Assembly: GCA_030549845.1 (NCBI GenBank)
Contig: JAUQQN010000001.1
Coordinates: 240,001 to 272,000, forward strand
DNA from: Patescibacteria group bacterium
Lineage (GTDB): Bacteria; Patescibacteriota; Minisyncoccia; UBA6257; HR35
Reading direction: 5' to 3'
Length of the DNA: 32,000 bases
Shown: in pieces, positions 2,026 to 18,079 of the stretch
How positions within the stretch are numbered: the first letter of the stretch is position 1
Layout: every line of letters starts with the position of its first letter
Program-made: the position numbers and the translations under genes
Notes under the pieces: generated by a model
What the model was told of the DNA's origin: nothing
What the model saw: only the letters and a program-made list of their open reading frames with translations
Databases searched by the model: none

Positions 2026-3354
2026 TTAAATTGAGGAATAAATTTCTTTTAGGGCTTTGATTCCCTTAAAGAACATTTTTTCATCAAAGTTTTCATTAGG
2101 TGCATGGACATTGTCGTCAGGTAAAGTAAAACCAGTTAAAATTATTGGTTTTTTATATATTCTTTGTAAAACCTCAGCAGCTGGTATAGATCCACCAGCA
2201 CGATTAAAAACAACCTTATTTCTAAAAACTCTCTCTAGAGCATTTTTTGTTTTAACAATAAATTCATTATTCAATGGAGTATAAAATGGAGCTGCTGAAC
2301 CTAAAAGTTTTAATTCCCATTTTACTCCTTTTGGTATATTTTTTTTAATAAAATTCTTTACTAGTTTGATTATTTTCTCTGGTTTTTGATATTCAATTAA
2401 TCTAAAAGAAAATTTGACGGCTGCTTCTTTAGGAATAATTGTTTTTACTCCTTCCTGAGTGTAGCCAGATATTATTCCGTTTATATCCATTGAAGGATAA
2501 ATTTTTGGTGAAAGTGAAGGTTCTTTTTTATCCAATGGATGGATTAAGTAAAGCTTAGTTTCTTTTAAGATTTCTTTTTCTTTAATACTTGCCAATCTTA
2601 GTAGCTCTTTTTCTTTTTTATCAATTTTTCTAACATCTTCATAAAATCTAGGGATTAATATCTTTCCTGTTTTTAAATCTTTCATTTTTGAAAATAAATC
2701 TGCTAAAAATTGAACTGGATTTAAAGCTAAATTTCCATAGCTCCCTGAATGTAAATCATATTCTCCAACCTTTATTTTTAATTCAAAATAAACAATACCT
2801 CTTAAAGCATAATAAATTGTTGGTACATTCTTTTTAATCATCCCAACATCCGTTAAATAAAAAACATCAACCTTTGATAAAACATTTTTTGCTTTTTTAA
2901 CATATTCTTCAAAATGAGAACTTGCTGATTCTTCTTCACCTTCAACCAGAAAAACAATATTATTTTTTAATTTATTTTCTTTAATCAATTCTTCAATTGC
3001 AAAAATATTTTGAACAATATGTCCTTTATTATCAGCAATTCCTCGACCATAAATTTTTCCATCTTTCAAAGTTAATTTAAATGGTGGTGTTTTCCATTCA
3101 TTAATTGGTTCTTCTGGTTGAACATCATAATGGCCATATATCCCGATTGTTTTTTTACCACCAATAAATCTATGAGCTAAAACCAAGGGTGGAGAGCTTT
3201 TTTCTTGAATTAATTTAACTTTAAAACCAAGAGATGAAAATTTATTTTTCAAAAATTCTGCAGCTTTTAAAATATCATTAAACCTTTCTTTTTGTGTTGA
3301 AACAGAGGGGATTGAAATAAAATCAGTTAAAAAGTTTAAAATTTCATTTTTCAT
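2026..3354 (-). CDS. M20-family dipeptidase (CNDP/Dug1-like M20 subfamily pattern)
   Basis: 442 aa. GHYDVQPEEPINEWKTPPFKLTLKDGKIYGRGIADNKG matches the metal-binding/dimerisation signature of M20 dipeptidases. Confidence 0.8.
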   Translation of the reverse strand: MKNEILNFLTDFISIPSVSTQKERFNDILKAAEFLKNKFSSLGFKVKLIQEKSSPPLVLAHRFIGGKKTIGIYGHYDVQPEEPINEWKTPPFKLTLKDGKIYGRGIADNKGHIVQNIFAIEELIKENKLKNNIVFLVEGEEESASSHFEEYVKKAKNVLSKVDVFYLTDVGMIKKNVPTIYYALRGIVYFELKIKVGEYDLHSGSYGNLALNPVQFLADLFSKMKDLKTGKILIPRFYEDVRKIDKKEKELLRLASIKEKEILKETKLYLIHPLDKKEPSLSPKIYPSMDINGIISGYTQEGVKTIIPKEAAVKFSFRLIEYQKPEKIIKLVKNFIKKNIPKGVKWELKLLGSAAPFYTPLNNEFIVKTKNALERVFRNKVVFNRAGGSIPAAEVLQRIYKKPIILTGFTLPDDNVHAPNENFDEKMFFKGIKALKEIYSSI

Positions 3355-3372
3355 AGAAAAATTATACTATTT

Positions 3373-4458
3373 TTACTTAGCAATTTGTACAACAAATTCT
3401 TTTAAGACTAAATAAAACTTATTTAAATCTTCTTTATCTATCCATTCTTTATCTGAATGATGACCTCCACCTTTAGGTCTAATTAGAATAACAGGTATAT
3501 TTTTTTCTTTAAAAAATCTAGCATCACTTGAACCATGCGAAAAGGCATAGCCTGTTTCGATTTTGAATTTCTCTTTCGCTATTTTTGAAAATAATTTTAA
3601 ATAATAATTATTTCTTTCAACTTCATAAGGAGACCCTTCTACTAAATTTTCTATTTTTATTTTTCTAAATTTTTTTAACAAATTTTTAATTCTCTTAAGG
3701 ATTTTATTTCTCTGCTTAAGATCAATATACCTTATATCAATAAAAGCTTCTGCATAATTTGAAACTTGATTTGTTGCTTCTCCTCCTATAATTTTTCCTA
3801 TGTTTAATGTATTATGCCAATGGATTTTGTTTTTGCATGGTTCTTTAGGAAAAATTTTTGCAAGATTATTCAAAAATCTTAAAAGGTTTTCAATTGCTCC
3901 TTCTCCTTCCCAAGGTCTTGAACCATGTGCTGATTTGCCGTAGCTTTTAACTTTTAAATGCCAAACACCCTTGGCTTTGATTTCGAAATTCCAATTTTGA
4001 CCTCCATCTGGCAGAAAACAGATTTTACAAGAATAACCTTTATCTAAGATGGCTTTAGTTCCTTTAAACCCACCAATTTCTTCATCAGTTGTTATCATTA
4101 TTCCTAAATCATATTTTTTTAAATCTTGATTTAGTTCTTTTAGAAGCTGTAAATAACAAGCAATAGCAAATTTCATATCATATACTCCTCTCCCCAAAAT
4201 TTTCTTTTTTTCAATTTTTAATTTAAAAAGTTCTTCTGGTCCTGGTACTACATCAAGATGGGCAGATAATAATAATTTCGGCTTTTTTGTTTTGTGAGCA
4301 GTAATAAATAAAGATGGGTAATTATCAAAATTAAATTCTTTTATAAATACAGGTAATTTGTTAATTTCTTCTTTTATCCAATTAATTGCTTTCTTATTCT
4401 CTTCTTTGTTTTGGGGAATTGTTTTAAAAGAAATTAATTTTTGTAAAATTTCTAACAT
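3373..4458 (-). CDS. M20-family peptidase/deacylase (ArgE/DapE-like)
   Basis: Motifs SAHLDVVPG, GRGVYDMKFA and TTDEEIGG. I chose the ATG at 4458 (MLEILQKLISFKT) because the longer track ORF runs upstream through the neighbour's terminator hairpin. Confidence 0.75.
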   Translation of the reverse strand: MLEILQKLISFKTIPQNKEENKKAINWIKEEINKLPVFIKEFNFDNYPSLFITAHKTKKPKLLLSAHLDVVPGPEELFKLKIEKKKILGRGVYDMKFAIACYLQLLKELNQDLKKYDLGIMITTDEEIGGFKGTKAILDKGYSCKICFLPDGGQNWNFEIKAKGVWHLKVKSYGKSAHGSRPWEGEGAIENLLRFLNNLAKIFPKEPCKNKIHWHNTLNIGKIIGGEATNQVSNYAEAFIDIRYIDLKQRNKILKRIKNLLKKFRKIKIENLVEGSPYEVERNNYYLKLFSKIAKEKFKIETGYAFSHGSSDARFFKEKNIPVILIRPKGGGHHSDKEWIDKEDLNKFYLVLKEFVVQIAK

Positions 4459-4545
4459 GATTAAGTTATGTTTTTTCTCTATTATAGACCCTTCACGACA
4501 AAAGTTGGATTCTTTGTCTTTATAAAAAATTTTAACCAAAAATAA

Positions 4546-4572
4546 GGGGCGTGGAGTTCTTAACACGCCCCC
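4546..4572 (-). terminator. intrinsic terminator of the GC-rich ligase gene
   Basis: Stem GGGGCGTG (4546-4553) pairs with CACGCCCC (4565-4572). On the minus strand it is followed by TTATTTTTGG, 14 nt after the stop at 4586. Confidence 0.55.
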
Positions 4573-4585
4573 GACTTTCTTGGAT

Positions 4586-5434
4586 TTAGTGGGTCTTCCT
4601 CTTCTCTACAAAAACACGCATCACCTCCTTTATTATTTCTTGTATCCCGTATAGAGAGGTGGAGTCAAATACCCGAATTTCGATTGTTCCTAGACTCCAC
4701 CTCGGCCGGCACCACCACCATACACATCCTTCACTCACTAAATCACCAGGCTGGGAGGGACTCTTTAGATCCACCTCCCAGCCGTTTTCTTTTTTTCTGA
4801 TAAGGCGTGGGATAGAGCGGAAATGATTCACTACATCCTCCCATGTCTGAAACCGAGACCATTGTCCTGGCTGGGCTGGTGCCCTCCTAGGATCACACCA
4901 GCCCCACCAACATCTCGCTCTGTTCTTGCTGGCATACTCCGTAAAGTTAATGTTGAAATGATTTAACAACGTCAGCCCTTCCCACGACTGTAATAAACCG
5001 GGGAAAGAAATATGGACGTGAACAGAAGAAACTAGGGCCATCCGCAGAACTCCCCACCACCTCCTACCCACCTCTTTCTCAAGGGCCCTCCAAAGAATCC
5101 TATAGCGATCCTTTGGGGCCCAGAATTTCCGAATTTCATGCAGCTTCAAATTAATTAAGTTGGCATCAACTGGTACGAAGTGGATATCCACCTCGCCCAG
5201 CCTTTTTCTGGTCTCTTTTAAGACCAGAAAGTACTTCTCACTAAGTTCCTCCCAACTGGAGGAAGGATATATAGCCCACTCAATCTGGTGCCTGCCGGCA
5301 TCAGTTTTGATGATGCCGGCTCCAGCAACCTCTAGACCCTCGCCTACAGCTTCCCATACGTCCACGGGCTCGCCATTTTTATAGACGAACCCCTCCACTT
5401 CAATCCCTACAGTTAACTCTTTCGGCCACTTCAT
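4586..5434 (-). CDS. carboxylate-amine ligase, GCS2/YbdK (glutamate-cysteine ligase family 2)-like; short and Trp-rich
   Basis: 282 aa. The motif order GIEVEGF ... SVHVHISF ... RPRWSLGTIEIRVFDS parallels the E. coli YbdK motifs GIELEMQ / QHVHVG / RPSPHFGTVEVRVMDT (recalled from memory). A perfect SD GGAGGTGA (5441-5448) lies 6 nt before the ATG. There are 19 Trp in 282 residues. Confidence 0.6.
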   Translation of the reverse strand: MKWPKELTVGIEVEGFVYKNGEPVDVWEAVGEGLEVAGAGIIKTDAGRHQIEWAIYPSSSWEELSEKYFLVLKETRKRLGEVDIHFVPVDANLINLKLHEIRKFWAPKDRYRILWRALEKEVGRRWWGVLRMALVSSVHVHISFPGLLQSWEGLTLLNHFNINFTEYASKNRARCWWGWCDPRRAPAQPGQWSRFQTWEDVVNHFRSIPRLIRKKENGWEVDLKSPSQPGDLVSEGCVWWWCRPRWSLGTIEIRVFDSTSLYGIQEIIKEVMRVFVEKRKTH

Positions 5435-5460
5435 TTTAACTCACCTCCGTTTAGGGTTCT

Positions 5461-5602
5461 TTTTAAAATTAAAAGGGCCGGGTTGGCCCCGGCTGAAGTG
5501 ATATAAAATTTTTATTTTTAAACTAAATCACCTCAGCCGGAGCACCTCGGCCCAAAATAACAAACAAAACAACTGAATTTCTTTTTGTAAGCATTGTTTG
5601 TA
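5461..5602 (-). promoter_or_regulatory. structured GC-rich leader E1: mini-ORF, 14-bp hairpin and overlapping terminator-like hairpin with T-tract
   Basis: Long hairpin 5489-5502 / 5527-5540 with one G.U pair. GC hairpin within 5475-5493, followed on the minus strand by TTTTAATTTT. A 23-codon ORF spans 5594..5523. See findings. Confidence 0.4.
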
Positions 5603-5608
5603 AATAAT

Positions 5609-5637
5609 ACTATAATCAACAAATTTATTTTTGTCAA
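5609..5637 (-). promoter_or_regulatory. sigma70-type promoter for leader E1 and the ligase gene
   Basis: Minus strand reads TTGACA (5632-5637), a 17-nt spacer, then TATAGT (5609-5614). Confidence 0.45.
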
Positions 5638-5663
5638 GGGTTTATGAAATATTTTTAACAAAT

Positions 5664-6287
5664 TTAAATAAGTGTAAGTGATTTTAAATAATTTTCTTCT
5701 ATTTTATCCCAATTTACAACATTCCACCAAGCTTGAATATATTCATTTCTTCGATTTTGATATTTCAAATAATATGCATGTTCCCAGACATCTAAACCCA
5801 TAATCGGCAAATCTCCATTCATTAAAGGATTATCTTGATTTGAAAGTGAATAAACTTTTAATTTTTTATCTGGAGTTAAAACAAACCAGGCCCAACCTGA
5901 ACCAAAATGTTTTAAGGCTGTTTCGGAAAATAAATTTTTAAAATTTTCAAATGAACCAAATGCTTCATTAATTGCTTTCAAAATTTCTCCTTGTGGCTGA
6001 CTCCCTCCTGGTTTCATAATCTCCCAAAAAAGAGTGTGATTGGCGTGACCGCCGCCATTATTTCTTACGGTTGTTCTTATTTCTTCTGGCAACTGATTTA
6101 AATTCTTTAAAATTTCTTCTAATTCTAAATTATGAAATTCTGGGTATTTTTCTAAGGCTGAATTTAGATTATTAACATAACCTTGATGATGCTTAGTGTG
6201 ATGAATTTCCATTGTCATTTTATCAATATAAGGCTCCAAGGCATCATAGGGATATGTAAGTGGCGGTAACTCATACGGATATTTCAT
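5664..6287 (-). CDS. sod: Fe/Mn superoxide dismutase
   Basis: 207 aa. Contains [14 protein letters not shown] and [15 protein letters not shown], the metal-ligand motifs of the Fe/Mn SOD family. Confidence 0.9.
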
Positions 6288-6308
6288 TTTTAAAAAAATA
6301 AATTAATT

Positions 6309-6817
6309 TTAATCGAATTTTTCAGAGTAGTATTTTAACTCATCAAACATACTTAACAAAAATTCTCTATAAGTTTCCTTTTCTTTCTCAAAATTCTGAA
6401 CATTAGAAAAATAAACAGCATTTCTTAAGGGAATCATCGAAAGTTCAATACATACTAATCTTAATTGTTCAACCATTCTTGCGCCACCTAATTGACCAAT
6501 AGAAACTCCACAAATACCAACTGGTTTATGAGCATATTCTTCATAAAAATTATCAAGCAAAAGTTTTAATTCCCCTGGAAAAGAATGATTATATTCTGGA
6601 GAAACTATAATGAAACCATTTGCTCTTTTAAAAATATCTGAAAGTTTTTTTCTTTTTACTTCATCCATTTCACCAGTAAAAGGAGAATCTAACCAATCTC
6701 GGGGTTTAATTAACTCAACTTCAAAACCATAATTTTTGCTTCTTCAAAAACAAATTCAGCAATTTTTTCTGAATTAGCTCCTCTTCTTCCTGTGCCAAGT
6801 ATGATTGGAATGTACAT
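6309..6817 (-). pseudogene. NAD(P)H-dependent FMN reductase split by a 1-nt frameshift in an A5 run
   Basis: The N-terminal frame is ATG 6817 to TAA 6710-6712 (MYIPIILGTGRRGANSEKIAEFVFEEAK...). The C-terminal frame is open from 6743 and contains SPEYNHSFPG. Adding one A at 6733-6737 gives a continuous ...EEAKNYGFEVELIKPRDW... Confidence 0.7.
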
Positions 6818-7056
6818 AAAAATATTATAAATGAAATTTTTTTGAGTTGAGGAACTAAAAATTAATTCTTACCATAAAATTCTATTTCTAAAAATACATT
6901 CTAGATTCTAAGGTCAATGATTCCCAAGTAGAGGAAATTGTAAAAGTAAAATTTTAGACTTAAGTTTTATTTTTCTTGAATTCTTAAGAAAATAAGAAAA
7001 GTAAATAAGAATTAGGGATTTTATTTGTCTTTCAATTTTAGGCCTAGAATAAAAAT

Positions 7057-7142
7057 TGGCGGAGGGGGTGGGATTCGAACCCACACGGGCTTTAAACCCA
7101 ATGGCTTTCGAGGCCATCCCATTTCCATTCTGGCACCCCTCC
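7057..7142 (-). tRNA. tRNA-Ser (anticodon CGA), CCA encoded
   Basis: Reverse complement is GGAGGGG...ATGGC-CTCGAAA-GCCAT, then a long variable arm, GTGGGTTCGAATCCCAC, CCCCTCC, G and CCA. Confidence 0.9.
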
Positions 7143-7464: not shown

Positions 7465-8881
7465 TTAATTTATCTATTGCTTTATTTATTAATTCTAGGC
7501 TTTTTTCTTTCCCATAAATTAACATAATATCTATCGGAGGAGGAGATGCTTCTAAGCCTGTTAAGGCTACTCTTAATGGCCAATATGTTAAACCCTTGTC
7601 TTCGCTTAAGGTATCTAAAACCTGCTTGATAAATTCATAATTAAATTTATCCTCAGGAATATTCTTTATATTTTCTCTAACATTTATTAAAGAACTTTTT
7701 ATTTGATCAAAAGTATAATCTTTCCATATTAATAGCTCTTTTGGATAATCAAATTTTTCATATAAAAACTTCATGGTTTCGAAAATTTCTTTTATAGTAT
7801 TTGCTCTTTCTTTCCCAAGTTCTATTATTTTATAAGTAATTTCTTTTGGGTATTTATTTAAGTAATCTCTTAAATATTTTAGATACTCATCAGCTAAAAT
7901 GATTTTTTCAATTTCTTGTGAGGTTTTTTTCCTCAAATAAAATTTATTTAACCAAATTAATTTTTTTGAATTAAATACTGCCGATCTTTTTTCAACGTCT
8001 TCCAAGTTAAATTCTTTGATAACCTCTTCTATACTTATAATTTCTTTCTCTCTTTTAGGATGCCAACCTAATAATACCAAAAAATTTAAGATTGCTTCTG
8101 GTAAAAAACCTTCAGCTCTATATTCTTTTATACTCTTAGCCCCGTGTCTTTTCGAAAGCTTACCTCCTGCTTCACCTAAAATCAGTGGAATATGAGCATA
8201 AATAGGTGGTTTCCAATTCATGGCTTTATAAATTAATATTTGTTTAGGGGTATTTGGTATATGTTCAGCGCCTCTTATTACATGGGTGATTCCTTGATAA
8301 TAATCATCTACAGGGGTAGCTAAATGAAATAATGGTTCATTTTCTGATTTTGCAATTACAAAATCGCCTATTAATCTTAAATCATATTTAATTTCACCTC
8401 GCAATAAATCTTTAAATGTTAAAACTTGTTCTGGCACCTTTAGTCTTATTACATAAGGCACATTTCTTGAAAGTTTCTCATTTATTTCTTCTTTTGTTAG
8501 CTTGGAGCATGTTCCATCGTATCTTGGTGGTTCGCCTTTTGTGATTTGCTCAAGTCTTTTGTTCTCTAGTTCTTCTTTTGAACAAAAACACCTATACGCC
8601 TTTCCTTTATTTAATAATTCTTCAATAACTCTTTTATAAATTTCTATTCTCTCTGACTGAAATATAGGACCTTCGTCATAATTTATACCTAACCATTGTA
8701 GGCTTTCGATTATATCATCAACAAATTCTTTTTTTGACCTCTCTCTGTCTGTATCTTCTATTCTTAAAATGAAAACTCCTTTTTGGTTTTTAGCAAAAAG
8801 AAAATTAAACAGAGCAGTTCTTGCAGATCCCAAATGTAGATATCCTGTAGGAGAAGGAGCAAATCTTGTTCTTACAACCAT
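7445..8881 (-). CDS. gltX: glutamyl-tRNA synthetase
   Basis: 478 aa. RFAPSPTGYLHLGSARTALFN is the HIGH region and KLSKRHG is the KMSKS-type loop. Confidence 0.9.
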   Translation of the reverse strand: MVVRTRFAPSPTGYLHLGSARTALFNFLFAKNQKGVFILRIEDTDRERSKKEFVDDIIESLQWLGINYDEGPIFQSERIEIYKRVIEELLNKGKAYRCFCSKEELENKRLEQITKGEPPRYDGTCSKLTKEEINEKLSRNVPYVIRLKVPEQVLTFKDLLRGEIKYDLRLIGDFVIAKSENEPLFHLATPVDDYYQGITHVIRGAEHIPNTPKQILIYKAMNWKPPIYAHIPLILGEAGGKLSKRHGAKSIKEYRAEGFLPEAILNFLVLLGWHPKREKEIISIEEVIKEFNLEDVEKRSAVFNSKKLIWLNKFYLRKKTSQEIEKIILADEYLKYLRDYLNKYPKEITYKIIELGKERANTIKEIFETMKFLYEKFDYPKELLIWKDYTFDQIKSSLINVRENIKNIPEDKFNYEFIKQVLDTLSEDKGLTYWPLRVALTGLEASPPPIDIMLIYGKEKSLELINKAIDKLNDIQIS

Positions 8882-14107: not shown

Positions 14108-14126
14108 AGTACAGTTTTCTGCACCT

Positions 14127-14134
<8 letters not shown>
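14108..14134 (-). other. 3' strand of the 23S processing stem
   Basis: AGTACAGTTTTCTGCACCTCAGCAAGT is the reverse complement of 17057-17083 except for one position, which gives a G.U pair. Confidence 0.7.
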
Positions 14135-17056
<2,922 letters not shown>

Positions 17057-17064
<8 letters not shown>

Positions 17065-17083
17065 AGGTACAGAAAACTGTACT
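17057..17083 (-). other. 5' strand of the 23S processing stem
   Basis: ACTTGCTGAGGTACAGAAAACTGTACT pairs with 14108-14134 (27 bp). Confidence 0.7.
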
Positions 17084-17258: not shown

Positions 17259-17957
17259 TTATTCAAAAAATCTCTCTTTTATTTTATGTAAAGCTTCTTT
17301 AGCAAATTCCTGGCCACCTAATCCAAAAGCTAAACCAAAAGAAATTGCGAATGCCAAAACTACTCCAGCTATTATTAAGCCTATGATTTCCCTGGCTATG
17401 TTAAGTTGATACAATGCACTTGCTATACCAAAAATTAGAACCACATAGAAAATAAATTCAGAAGCTGTTTTAGCTCCCCTTAGCTCTAATCCTTTAAACC
17501 AAACATAAGAAACTTTTCTTAAAAAGTCACCTAAAAAGAATGCAATTATTACAATTACACCACTTACTATTGCATTTGGTAAATAGTTAACTATTTTCAC
17601 TAAAAAGTCACTTATTTGTCTCCAACCTAAAATGTCAAAAGCTGGCATCCAAAAAAGTGCCCAGACAACCCAAAATGTTAAAGTACCTAAAAATTCTTCA
17701 GTCTTCAATGCAACATTTGTTTTTTCTAACCACTTTTCAAACCCAATATTTCTTAAAAGATCATTGATTTTTAATCTCTCAACTAACCATCTTATAGCAA
17801 ACTCAAAGACCTTTGCAACTAAAAACCCTATTATTACTATTACTAAGGCTACAACAAATAAAGCTAGGAAATTAAAAATCTTTGCTACATAATTTGCGGT
17901 ATAAAAACCTAAGAGCTCTAATGGAGTTTGGAATGCATAAGGTCCACTTGATGGCAT
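17259..17957 (-). CDS. multi-pass membrane protein (resembles conserved-TM-helix / MscS-associated proteins)
   Basis: 232 aa with 5-6 hydrophobic segments. The family assignment comes from general resemblance only. Confidence 0.5.
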   Translation of the reverse strand: MPSSGPYAFQTPLELLGFYTANYVAKIFNFLALFVVALVIVIIGFLVAKVFEFAIRWLVERLKINDLLRNIGFEKWLEKTNVALKTEEFLGTLTFWVVWALFWMPAFDILGWRQISDFLVKIVNYLPNAIVSGVIVIIAFFLGDFLRKVSYVWFKGLELRGAKTASEFIFYVVLIFGIASALYQLNIAREIIGLIIAGVVLAFAISFGLAFGLGGQEFAKEALHKIKERFFE

Positions 17958-18079
17958 ATTTTATTTATTTAACTTTAATCCGATTAGCCATTTCGGCAAT
18001 CGGATTTTGATTTTTAAGGTTAATTGTTAATTATTAATTATTAAAAATTTTAACATACAACTTAAAAAATATTTTTGAT

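Follow-up and report, generated by a model that had tools for sequence, protein, structure and literature searches.

The window analysed here is a stretch of 32,000 nucleotides (nt) from a Patescibacteria group bacterium (contig JAUQQN010000001.1, positions 240,001 to 272,000), and its minus strand carries, at 4586..5434, a gene of 282 codons for a carboxylate-amine ligase-like protein. The gene lies in an island of 49% G+C in a bacterium whose coding DNA is about 27% G+C. Comparison with orthologous loci shows that this G+C content is no sign of recent transfer, as it is maintained in the orthologues of several A+T-rich lineages. We give an even chance to the account in which the ligase gene is vertically maintained, gated by an attenuator and dependent on a Shine-Dalgarno (SD) site, with a coding sequence kept G+C-rich and dense in hairpins and a transcript kept folded. 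A stronger version, which we put forward only tentatively and consider doubtful, is that the ligase transcript is a cellular mRNA selected into an rRNA-like, heat-stable fold, which was kept while the orthologues fell to 35–40% identity.

A G+C-rich gene maintained in A+T-rich lineages

The mean G+C content of the whole window is 31%, and most of its protein-coding stretches lie at 22–31%. Intervals of 400 nt spanning 4601–5400 reach 0.48–0.50 G+C and those wholly outside the island 0.22–0.31, so the jump to about one half that the initial annotation of this DNA had described is real. As it had also stated, the other G+C-rich patches are structural RNAs: only the 23S rRNA gene (14123–17066) and a pair of tRNA genes rise more than 12 points above the window mean. 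The open reading frame (ORF) contains everything that had been ascribed to it, namely 282 codons, 19 Trp (6.7%), the motifs GIEVEGF, HVHISF and GTIEIRVFD, and the Trp clusters RRWWG, CWWGWC and CVWWWC. The G+C fraction at its first, second and third codon positions (GC1/2/3) is 0.51/0.42/0.53, compared with a GC3 of 0.13–0.22 in 12 other genes of the window. Codon usage is the inverse of that of the genome (for example GAG 17 against GAA 9, with AGG, CGG and GCC common), and the amino-acid composition is shifted as well, with Arg at 8.1% against 2–5% elsewhere and Lys at 6.4% against 11–15%.

The annotation had recommended a check for a chimeric assembly. Over 2381–5838 an independent Logan assembly, L001 (SRR21619497), agrees with the window at 100% identity, and it covers both island junctions; the junctions are therefore no assembly artefact, and a chimera is ruled out. 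The contig of a second strain (P0001) carries an 86%-identical copy of the ligase gene adjoining the same PolA and GltX genes. The divergence of this copy forms a mosaic, in which residues ~40–132 and 176–203 are identical and nearly all differences fall in residues 1–35 and 133–175; this hints at either recombination or local rapid change.

The host is an A+T-rich bacterium of the Parcubacteria/Paceibacteria type within the candidate phyla radiation (CPR). The nearest named relatives of its GltX are Patescibacteria/Parcubacteria, the 23S rRNA of the window is bacterial, and two of the ligase loci come from 'Candidatus Paceibacterota' genomes. The host is probably a thermophile, as suggested by the G+C content of its 23S rRNA (56%, compared with ~27% for coding DNA) and by branched-polyamine-synthase homologues in related loci. 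No 16S or 5S gene accompanies the 23S rRNA gene inside the 32-kb window. An archaeal donor of the ligase gene was considered and rejected: the P0001 contig (NCBI MEM5815515 and neighbours), labelled 'Aenigmatarchaeota', carries bacterial PolA and GltX that cluster at 90% identity with those of the window, and is a mis-binned close bacterial relative. A second contig labelled Candidatus Aenigmatarchaeota, L006 (JAGDWU010000034.1), has a promoter of bacterial type (TTGACA-17-TATAAT) as well as an intrinsic terminator, and the two contigs are probably both mis-binned CPR contigs.

The same G+C anomaly recurs in A+T-rich CPR bacteria of at least four further lineages. Gene and flanking G+C are 0.49 and 0.26 in L003, 0.46 and 0.29 in L005, 0.49 and 0.31 in L008, 0.50 and 0.29 in L009, and 0.46 and 0.25 in L010. 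GC3 is 0.48 in L003 (neighbours 0.14–0.20), 0.45 in L005 (neighbours 0.15–0.20) and 0.49 in L009 (neighbours 0.24–0.25); over the five orthologues it ranges from 0.45 to 0.49, against 0.13–0.25 in neighbouring genes, at a protein identity to the window of 35–40%. The annotation had proposed recent horizontal acquisition, while allowing that an equally G+C-rich orthologue in relatives would point to vertical inheritance. Such orthologues are found, beside the same partner gene (in L003, for example, 0.49 against 0.26 beside an M20 hydrolase gene), and a near-identical strain without the gene has lost it by deletion, as described below; the proposal of recent acquisition is thus not upheld.

Other signs of mobility point the same way. 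No integrase or transposase ORF was found near the island and no flanking or terminal repeats around it, and the nearest tRNA gene is 1.5 kb distant, with genes for a flavin mononucleotide (FMN) reductase and a superoxide dismutase (SOD) in between. Among the usual signs of a genomic island, atypical composition is present; an intact empty site or a host-like copy in relatives, and mobility genes, direct repeats or a site within a tRNA gene, are not. Polarised synonymous changes in L008 and L010 comprise 15 from G/C to A/T and 11 from A/T to G/C, a small sample; we estimate that a gene of 50% G+C decaying in a genome with a GC3 of 0.16 would show about 5:1 toward A/T, and the counts thus indicate no strong decay toward A+T.

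Predicted folding of the coding sequence goes beyond its composition

To quantify base pairing we shuffled synonymous codons among positions, which keeps the protein, the codon usage and the composition exactly. Against these shuffles the folding z-score is -4.5 for the window ligase gene, -9.6 for L003, -7.5 for L005, -6.0 for L008, -5.8 for L009, -3.9 for L010 and -3.3 for L012. Shuffling costs 32–58 kcal/mol of folding energy in the six G+C-anomalous orthologues and 23 kcal/mol in L012. Among the A+T-rich homologues, L011 (+1.1) and L006 (-0.25) show no excess and L002 and L007 (-1.9 each) little, so that the anomaly in composition and the excess pairing go together. Eight neighbouring genes, two of them from the 44% G+C host of L012, give z-scores of -0.9 to +1.35. 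Over 21 ORFs of the window the ligase gene has a z-score of -4.7 and the other 20 a mean of -0.40 (standard deviation 0.89), the most negative of these (-2.6) being an ORF that overlaps a tRNA gene. Since the excess is measured against shuffles that preserve composition and codons, it is not explained by transfer.

Two further measures agree. With dinucleotide shuffles the z-score is -5.1 for the window ligase gene and -6.0 for L003, compared with +1.2 for the SOD gene and -7.9 for a piece of the 23S rRNA of equal length. Counted without the use of energies, hairpin stems of at least 9 Watson-Crick pairs number 48 in seven orthologues, where 16.4 are expected. The structure is a string of local hairpins of 8–13 bp that runs throughout the ligase coding sequence. 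In simulations at 65–75 °C the ligase mRNAs remain 45–60% paired, like the 23S piece, compared with 15–41% for neighbouring mRNAs. Within the closely related trio L008, L009 and L010 change is lower at paired than at unpaired sites (0.073–0.162 against 0.127–0.214).

In both the window and L003 the stretch rich in G+C and hairpins coincides with the coding sequence, from its ATG to its stop codon. Because it is bounded in this way and framed by sense-strand signals, we favor the mRNA as the selected object. The hairpins shift register between lineages, and column-wise covariation tests are therefore not meaningful. One specific conserved RNA fold was considered and is ruled out by a structure conservation index of 0–0.18. 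Confinement of the G+C to stems is likewise ruled out, as its partition between paired and unpaired positions is the same as in shuffled sequences.

A self-contained transcription unit with a candidate attenuator

The island is one self-contained unit, made up of a promoter, a small leader ORF, an attenuator-like hairpin, an SD site, the 282-codon ORF and a terminator. The promoter-like site TTGACA-17-TATAGT (5609..5637, minus strand) matches 11 of 12 consensus positions and lies directly after the SOD stop codon; sites resembling TTGACA-N17-TATAAT occupy the corresponding position in L003, L005, L006 and L002. Next comes a small ORF of 23 codons and a stop (MLTKRNSVVLFVILGRGAPAEVI; 5523..5594, minus strand), whose 3' half forms the 5' arm of the leader hairpin. 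Small ORFs of 20–31 codons with a core of the L-F-I-L type also precede the ligase gene in L003, L005, L008–L010, L006 and L002. Two Val-to-Ile changes, an in-frame insertion of ATT and a change of the stop from TAG to TAA separate the window ORF from that of L021, a contig of a closely related strain; the stems are identical.

The leader hairpin (5475..5553, minus strand) is nested, with an outer stem GGGCCG/CGGCCC and an inner stem CCGGCUGAGGUGAU/AUCACUUCAGCCGG, and is followed by a run of U at 5465–5474. It folds at -50.5 kcal/mol (z -8.4), and its 3' half alone forms a short terminator hairpin (5477–5493) of -13.5 kcal/mol. Folds computed for each leader separately show the same four-segment layout in L021, L003, L005, L008–L010 and L006. 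When segment 1 is withheld from the L009 leader, which mimics its cover by a ribosome, the 2:3 helix forms and the 3' arm of the terminator is left unpaired. Rfam 15 gives no match at gathering score inside 4400–5700; at E <= 10 it gives only chance matches of microRNA type, in the leader.

From this anatomy we infer a candidate leader-peptide attenuator that would sense the supply of Leu, Ile, Val and Phe. A ribosome stalled at the Leu, Phe, Ile and Val codons just before hairpin segment 1 would free segment 2, which would pair with segment 3; the terminator would then not form, and transcription would read through into the ligase gene. We found no description of a leader-peptide attenuator in CPR bacteria in the searchable literature.

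The SD sequence GGAGGTGA (5441..5448, minus strand) stands six bases before the ATG, and strong SD sequences precede the ligase gene in all loci. As the annotation had noticed, it is a perfect site of a kind rare among the neighbours: 1 of 23 ORFs in the window has an SD, and in the other 22 the 25 bases before the start hold no SD-like sequence, not even a 4-base core, their upstream regions being A+T-rich. The organism thus seems to initiate translation almost wholly without SD pairing. Within the window ligase ORF the SD-like motif GAGGTG occurs 6 times, compared with 1.7 expected from synonymous shuffles (minus-strand motifs at 4622, 4698, 4772, 5058, 5069 and 5189), and there are two more in the 5' arm of the leader hairpin. 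These internal motifs are clearly enriched only in the window copy and weak or absent in the orthologues, and were rejected as a family trait.

The gene ends in an intrinsic terminator of its own (4536..4571, minus strand), which the annotation had recognized as a GC-rich stem. It consists of GGGGCGUG-N10-CACGCCCC (the stem is also given as GGGGCGTG-N10-CACGCCCC) followed by UUAUUUUU; the hairpin has a folding energy of -21.8 kcal/mol (z -4.0), with a U run after it, and an equivalent terminator follows the ligase gene of L003. This terminator follows the stop codon and makes the ligase gene monocistronic.

A sister strain has lost the gene by deletion

In the strain of L021 a segment of 1644 nt is absent (3806..5449, minus strand), comprising the SD site, the ligase gene and the 5' two thirds of the adjacent M20 hydrolase gene, with the microhomology TAAAC at its bounds. 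L021 aligns to window positions 6848–5450 at 96.7% and 3805–1976 at 89.4% identity, the junction lying at L021 positions 1429–1430, and it keeps the promoter, the leader ORF and the putative attenuator hairpin intact. The truncation of the M20 gene and the intact leader indicate that the gene-less strain arose by deletion and does not represent an empty insertion site. The last ~100 nt of L014 and L015 recur at the start of L021, as expected if the three contigs belong to one strain; L014 and L015 are 99.3% identical to the window across PolA–GltX; identity to the sister strain thus drops from 99.3% through 96.7% to 89.4% across the locus.

Several small differences surround this site. A frameshift within an A run (...EEAK|...) divides the FMN-reductase gene of the window (6302–6817, minus strand), which may be a real pseudogene or the product of a homopolymer error; the L021 copy is intact, with 171 residues. 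Just upstream of the FMN-reductase start the sister-strain assemblies carry a 34-nt tandem duplication (L014 7412–7478 and L015 7286–7352; window ~6815–6848), and several Logan contigs end near this duplication or near the tRNA-Ser gene (7057–7142). An apparent strain breakpoint at ~6812 proved to be merely the tandem duplication.

A minimal member of the glutamate-cysteine ligase superfamily

The annotation had assigned the protein to the GCS2/YbdK-like ligases; this stands at the level of the family profile and of the fold, and fails for the single sequence, which misses the Pfam and NCBIfam cut-offs. Searched alone, the sequence matches neither PF04107 nor PF12224 at E <= 10, it has no match in a PDB sequence search or in PADLOC, and its score against TIGR02050 (YbdK) is a weak 25.7 bits, below the cut-off of 176.4; a precomputed PF04107 match is described only as 'faint'. 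An exhaustive search of 1.84 billion representatives returned 72 cluster-representative homologues of 256–369 residues, and a family alignment and profile were built from 30 of them. PF04107 is matched by 10 of these 30 (best E 9e-12), and PF12224 (Amidoligase_2), the other family that had been suggested, by none. Against the PDB, the 30-homologue profile finds YbdK in entries 1r8g (E 2e-12) and 1tt4 (E 6e-11).

The predicted structure leads to the same fold. With the family alignment the AlphaFold model reaches a pLDDT of 96.5 and a pTM of 0.92 (single-sequence input gives a pLDDT of 36.6). The best match in a fold search is the plant glutamate-cysteine ligase 2gwc (query-normalized TM-score 0.66, E 7e-8), followed by YbdK 1r8g (TM-score 0.58), E. 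coli GshA and, after these, glutamine synthetases; every one of the top 25 PDB matches, at E <= 0.001, is a glutamate-cysteine ligase, YbdK or a glutamine synthetase. The protein is shortened relative to YbdK, as had been claimed. It ends 26 residues past GTIEIRVFD, where YbdK runs on for more than 100 residues beyond the aligned motif; the alignment stops near YbdK residue 267 of 372, and the full-length architecture with its C-terminal helical region is absent. Sequence and model together show a minimal, distant and shortened member of the glutamate-cysteine ligase/YbdK carboxylate-amine ligase superfamily.

G9, E11, E13, E51, R242, E251 and R253 are invariant in the 30 aligned homologues, and H138 and H140 among the 8 closest sequences. 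The E-x-E, E, H-x-H and E-x-R positions would be metal- and ATP-binding residues; from the aligned motifs we take them to be equivalent to the catalytic residues of GshA and YbdK. The Trp-richness to which the annotation had drawn attention is real and is shared: Trp makes up 3.0–6.7% of residues in all homologues for which DNA is in hand, and as these include A+T-rich ones, it is largely a family trait.

Partner hydrolases and likely function

Downstream of the ligase gene lies an M20 metallohydrolase of the ArgE/DapE deacylase family (3373..4458, minus strand; TIGR01910, E 9e-54), with a host-like GC3 of 0.16. A second, dipeptidase-like M20 gene (2026–3354, minus strand; NF006053, E 5e-110) follows directly, so that the ligase gene is followed by two different M20 hydrolases. 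In L003 the ligase gene precedes an M20 gene 57% identical to that at 3373–4458, an FMN reductase (82%) and an SOD (84%), the last two being close to the ligase gene in the window too. The ligase–M20 pair is also present in L012, in a host of 44% G+C, where the M20 gene again lies directly downstream and its product is 51–52% identical to that of the window. A hydrolase of the class-I amidotransferase/peptidase-C26 type (GATase) is found directly downstream in L002 and L005 and directly upstream in L009. An amidohydrolase thus adjoins the ligase gene in every locus with readable flanks, and all of the partner genes are host-like in composition. A branched-polyamine-synthase homologue is nearby in L003 and L009.

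The pairwise identities of ligase and partner hydrolase rank the lineages in the same order: M20 identities of 57, 52 and 49% accompany ligase identities of 39, 30 and 33%, and GATase identities of 35, 33 and 29% accompany ligase identities of 41, 27 and 24%. A search for further orthologues by GltX synteny yielded two contigs, L022 and L023, with no ligase gene near GltX or SOD. L023, from a related CPR bacterium, carries at 7572–8129 and 17585–17983 a LAGLIDADG endonuclease ORF, a 23S-rRNA-intervening-sequence protein and a fragmented DNA polymerase III alpha gene.

The occurrence of hydrolases of two unrelated folds beside the ligase suggests a make-and-break relation around one amide bond. 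Judged by these gene neighbourhoods, the ligase would form an ATP-dependent amide bond, most likely of gamma-glutamyl type, to an amine or amino acid, and the neighbouring amidohydrolase (M20 or C26-type, according to lineage) would later cleave such a bond. The genomic context suggests a polyamine or a thiol as the acceptor and does not discriminate between them. Against this reading, the terminator separates the ligase gene from the M20 gene, which makes them neighbours and not a proven operon. The gene is dispensable in nature, as shown by its loss in the sister strain.

Discussion

In the account that we favor, the composition of the ligase gene would be kept because selection maintains its transcript in a folded state, in the manner of the structural RNAs of the host; this is the weakest step. 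Folding along its body would give an mRNA that is rarely produced a long life, and would limit the entry of ribosomes to the SD site. In the stronger and more doubtful version, with selection for an rRNA-like fold, the transcript may be a natural 'superfolder' mRNA whose fold serves either its persistence or the restriction of translation to its SD site, in an organism where initiation otherwise takes place on unstructured A+U-rich leaders; alternatively, the folded RNA would have a second, non-coding role. The need for pairing would also steer the composition of the protein, through the Trp, Pro, Gly, Ala and Arg codons that form stems, and with it a fast turnover of sequence.

A number of observations weigh against selection on the transcript. 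The structure conservation index of 0–0.18 means that structure turns over between lineages, and just two hairpins recur at the same columns (WAPK...RAL and WGW...DPRR...P), with differing sequences and shifted registers. The antisense strand has z-scores similar to those of the sense strand, G.T and A.C mismatches within stems are equally common (16 and 13), and many substitutions between close relatives break predicted pairs. Unpaired positions are also enriched in G+C (0.36–0.43), so pairing alone does not cover the whole shift in composition. Thermophily is read only from the G+C content of the 23S rRNA (56%) and the polyamine-synthase homologues nearby in relatives, a search for sample metadata having found none, and the attenuator model is read from the anatomy of the leader.

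Older or recurrent transfer would explain the G+C content differently: a cassette of leader and ligase, perhaps with the hydrolase, would move among CPR bacteria or be replaced time and again from a pool of moderate G+C, and the high G+C would be constantly re-imported and not selected. The distribution of the gene is patchy, as it is absent beside SOD in L022 and its presence varies within a population; the ligase–M20 pair lies on different sides of the FMN reductase–SOD genes in the window and in L003, and the ligases of these two loci are 38% identical where their SODs are 84% and their FMN reductases 82% identical. The two clustered patches of divergence from P0001 and the presence of the pair in the 44% G+C host of L012 would also fit a mobile cassette. 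However, the partner hydrolases have the composition of their hosts and follow the ligases in the rank order of divergence, no donor-like close relative was found in 1.8 billion representatives (outside the species, identity reaches 44% at most), and the excess of hairpins beyond composition would need a separate explanation. We regard this explanation as fairly unlikely.

The equal z-scores of the two strands raise the question of which molecule is selected. The inverted repeats could act in DNA, as hairpins or cruciforms or as a hotspot for recombination or template switching, or in a structured antisense RNA, and the mRNA would then simply happen to be the strand used for reading. Most of the stems are perfect Watson-Crick helices, G.T and A.C mismatches are equally frequent, and identity to the sister strain falls from 99.3% through 96.7% to 89.4% across the locus. 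We nevertheless judge it unlikely, since the stretch runs from ATG to stop and is bracketed by a promoter, an SD site and a terminator in the sense direction, no convincing antisense promoter was found, and neighbouring genes in the divergent 89% segment stay A+T-rich. Single changes in the trio L008/L009/L010 give 73 G.U pairs in the sense and 48 in the antisense reading, although these counts are non-independent.

Rare codons offer a third possibility, in which G/C-ending codons, decoded slowly, throttle expression and structure is an incidental by-product. The inverse codon usage (GAG 17 against GAA 9) and the tight control suggested by the attenuator are in keeping with this, but shuffles that preserve the codons still fold 32–58 kcal/mol (L012: 23) less well and the amino-acid composition is shifted too (Arg 8.1%, Lys 6.4%), which makes such throttling very improbable. 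Least tenable, and in our view hardly credible, is a recent single-gene transfer from a donor of ~50% G+C with composition, codons and SD as undecayed donor traits: a GC1/2/3 of 0.51/0.42/0.53 would suit an ordinary gene of such a genome, the ligase is the sole window gene with an SD, and it is absent from the near-identical strain and the SOD neighbourhood of L022, yet orthologues at 35–40% identity keep the anomaly in A+T-rich hosts beside the same partners, the leader and promoter are host-like and conserved together with the gene, mobility genes and flanking repeats were not found, the absence in L021 is a deletion that truncates M20, synonymous changes show no strong A+T trend, and ordinary genes of 44–50% G+C have no excess folding (L012 neighbours, z -0.4 and -0.75).

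The ligase gene is a clean counter-example to the calling of transfer from composition, as its G+C content, codons and ribosome-binding site look foreign and yet it is maintained in place. Screens for structured RNA usually discard G+C-rich patches that contain ORFs; here such an ORF folds about as strongly as rRNA, and we found no prior description of such a gene in the searchable literature. If selection does act at the RNA level, the gene would provide a natural precedent for structure-stabilized mRNAs and a case in which such selection visibly shapes the composition of a protein. For the physiology of CPR bacteria, our analysis defines a minimal glutamate-cysteine-ligase-like family that is always found beside an amidohydrolase, together with a candidate leader-peptide attenuator and a window in which one gene alone uses an SD site.

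Comparison with known systems

The closest relatives of the protein are YbdK and the GCS2 family (PF04107, TIGR02050; 1r8g, 1tt4), with which it shares profile homology (E 2e-12), the fold and the order of the E-x-E, E, H and E-x-R motifs. It differs from them in length (282 against ~370 residues, with ~100 C-terminal residues missing), in failing the family cut-offs, in its unusual richness in Trp and in its pairing with an amidohydrolase. The plant enzyme 2gwc is the best structural match, but identity to it and to E. coli GshA (1v4g, 2d32) is 11–19%, and these enzymes have 438–510 residues where the query corresponds to the catalytic core only.

Gamma-glutamylation pathways pair a ligase of the glutamine-synthetase type with a class-I amidotransferase-like hydrolase, as in PuuA and PuuD of E. 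coli. The loci L002, L005 and L009 resemble this arrangement in having a carboxylate-amine ligase beside a GATase/C26-type hydrolase, and the branched-polyamine-synthase homologue near the ligase gene in L003 and L009 may indicate a related substrate. In contrast to PuuA, the present ligase is of the glutamate-cysteine ligase type; its partner is an M20 hydrolase in the window, L003 and L012, and the oxidase and dehydrogenase steps are not seen at the ligase loci.

Leader-peptide attenuators are known for amino-acid operons, as in the leu, ilv, phe and thr leaders. The ligase leader is similar in its promoter, in the short ORF behind it, which has many Leu, Ile, Val and Phe codons and runs into the first half of mutually exclusive hairpins, and in the terminator and U run just upstream of the gene. 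It differs in that its untranslated state would be one nested hairpin (1:4 plus 2:3) and not the pair 1:2 and 3:4, in having no Rfam leader match, and in that the regulated ligase is not a biosynthetic operon.

Structure that extends over a whole coding RNA is known from the genomes of RNA phages and from engineered 'superfolder' mRNAs. The ligase transcript is comparable to these as a translated RNA of ~1 kb that is ~60–70% paired, with an excess of folding comparable to that of rRNA. Unlike them, it is the product of a chromosomal cellular gene, and its structure turns over between lineages.

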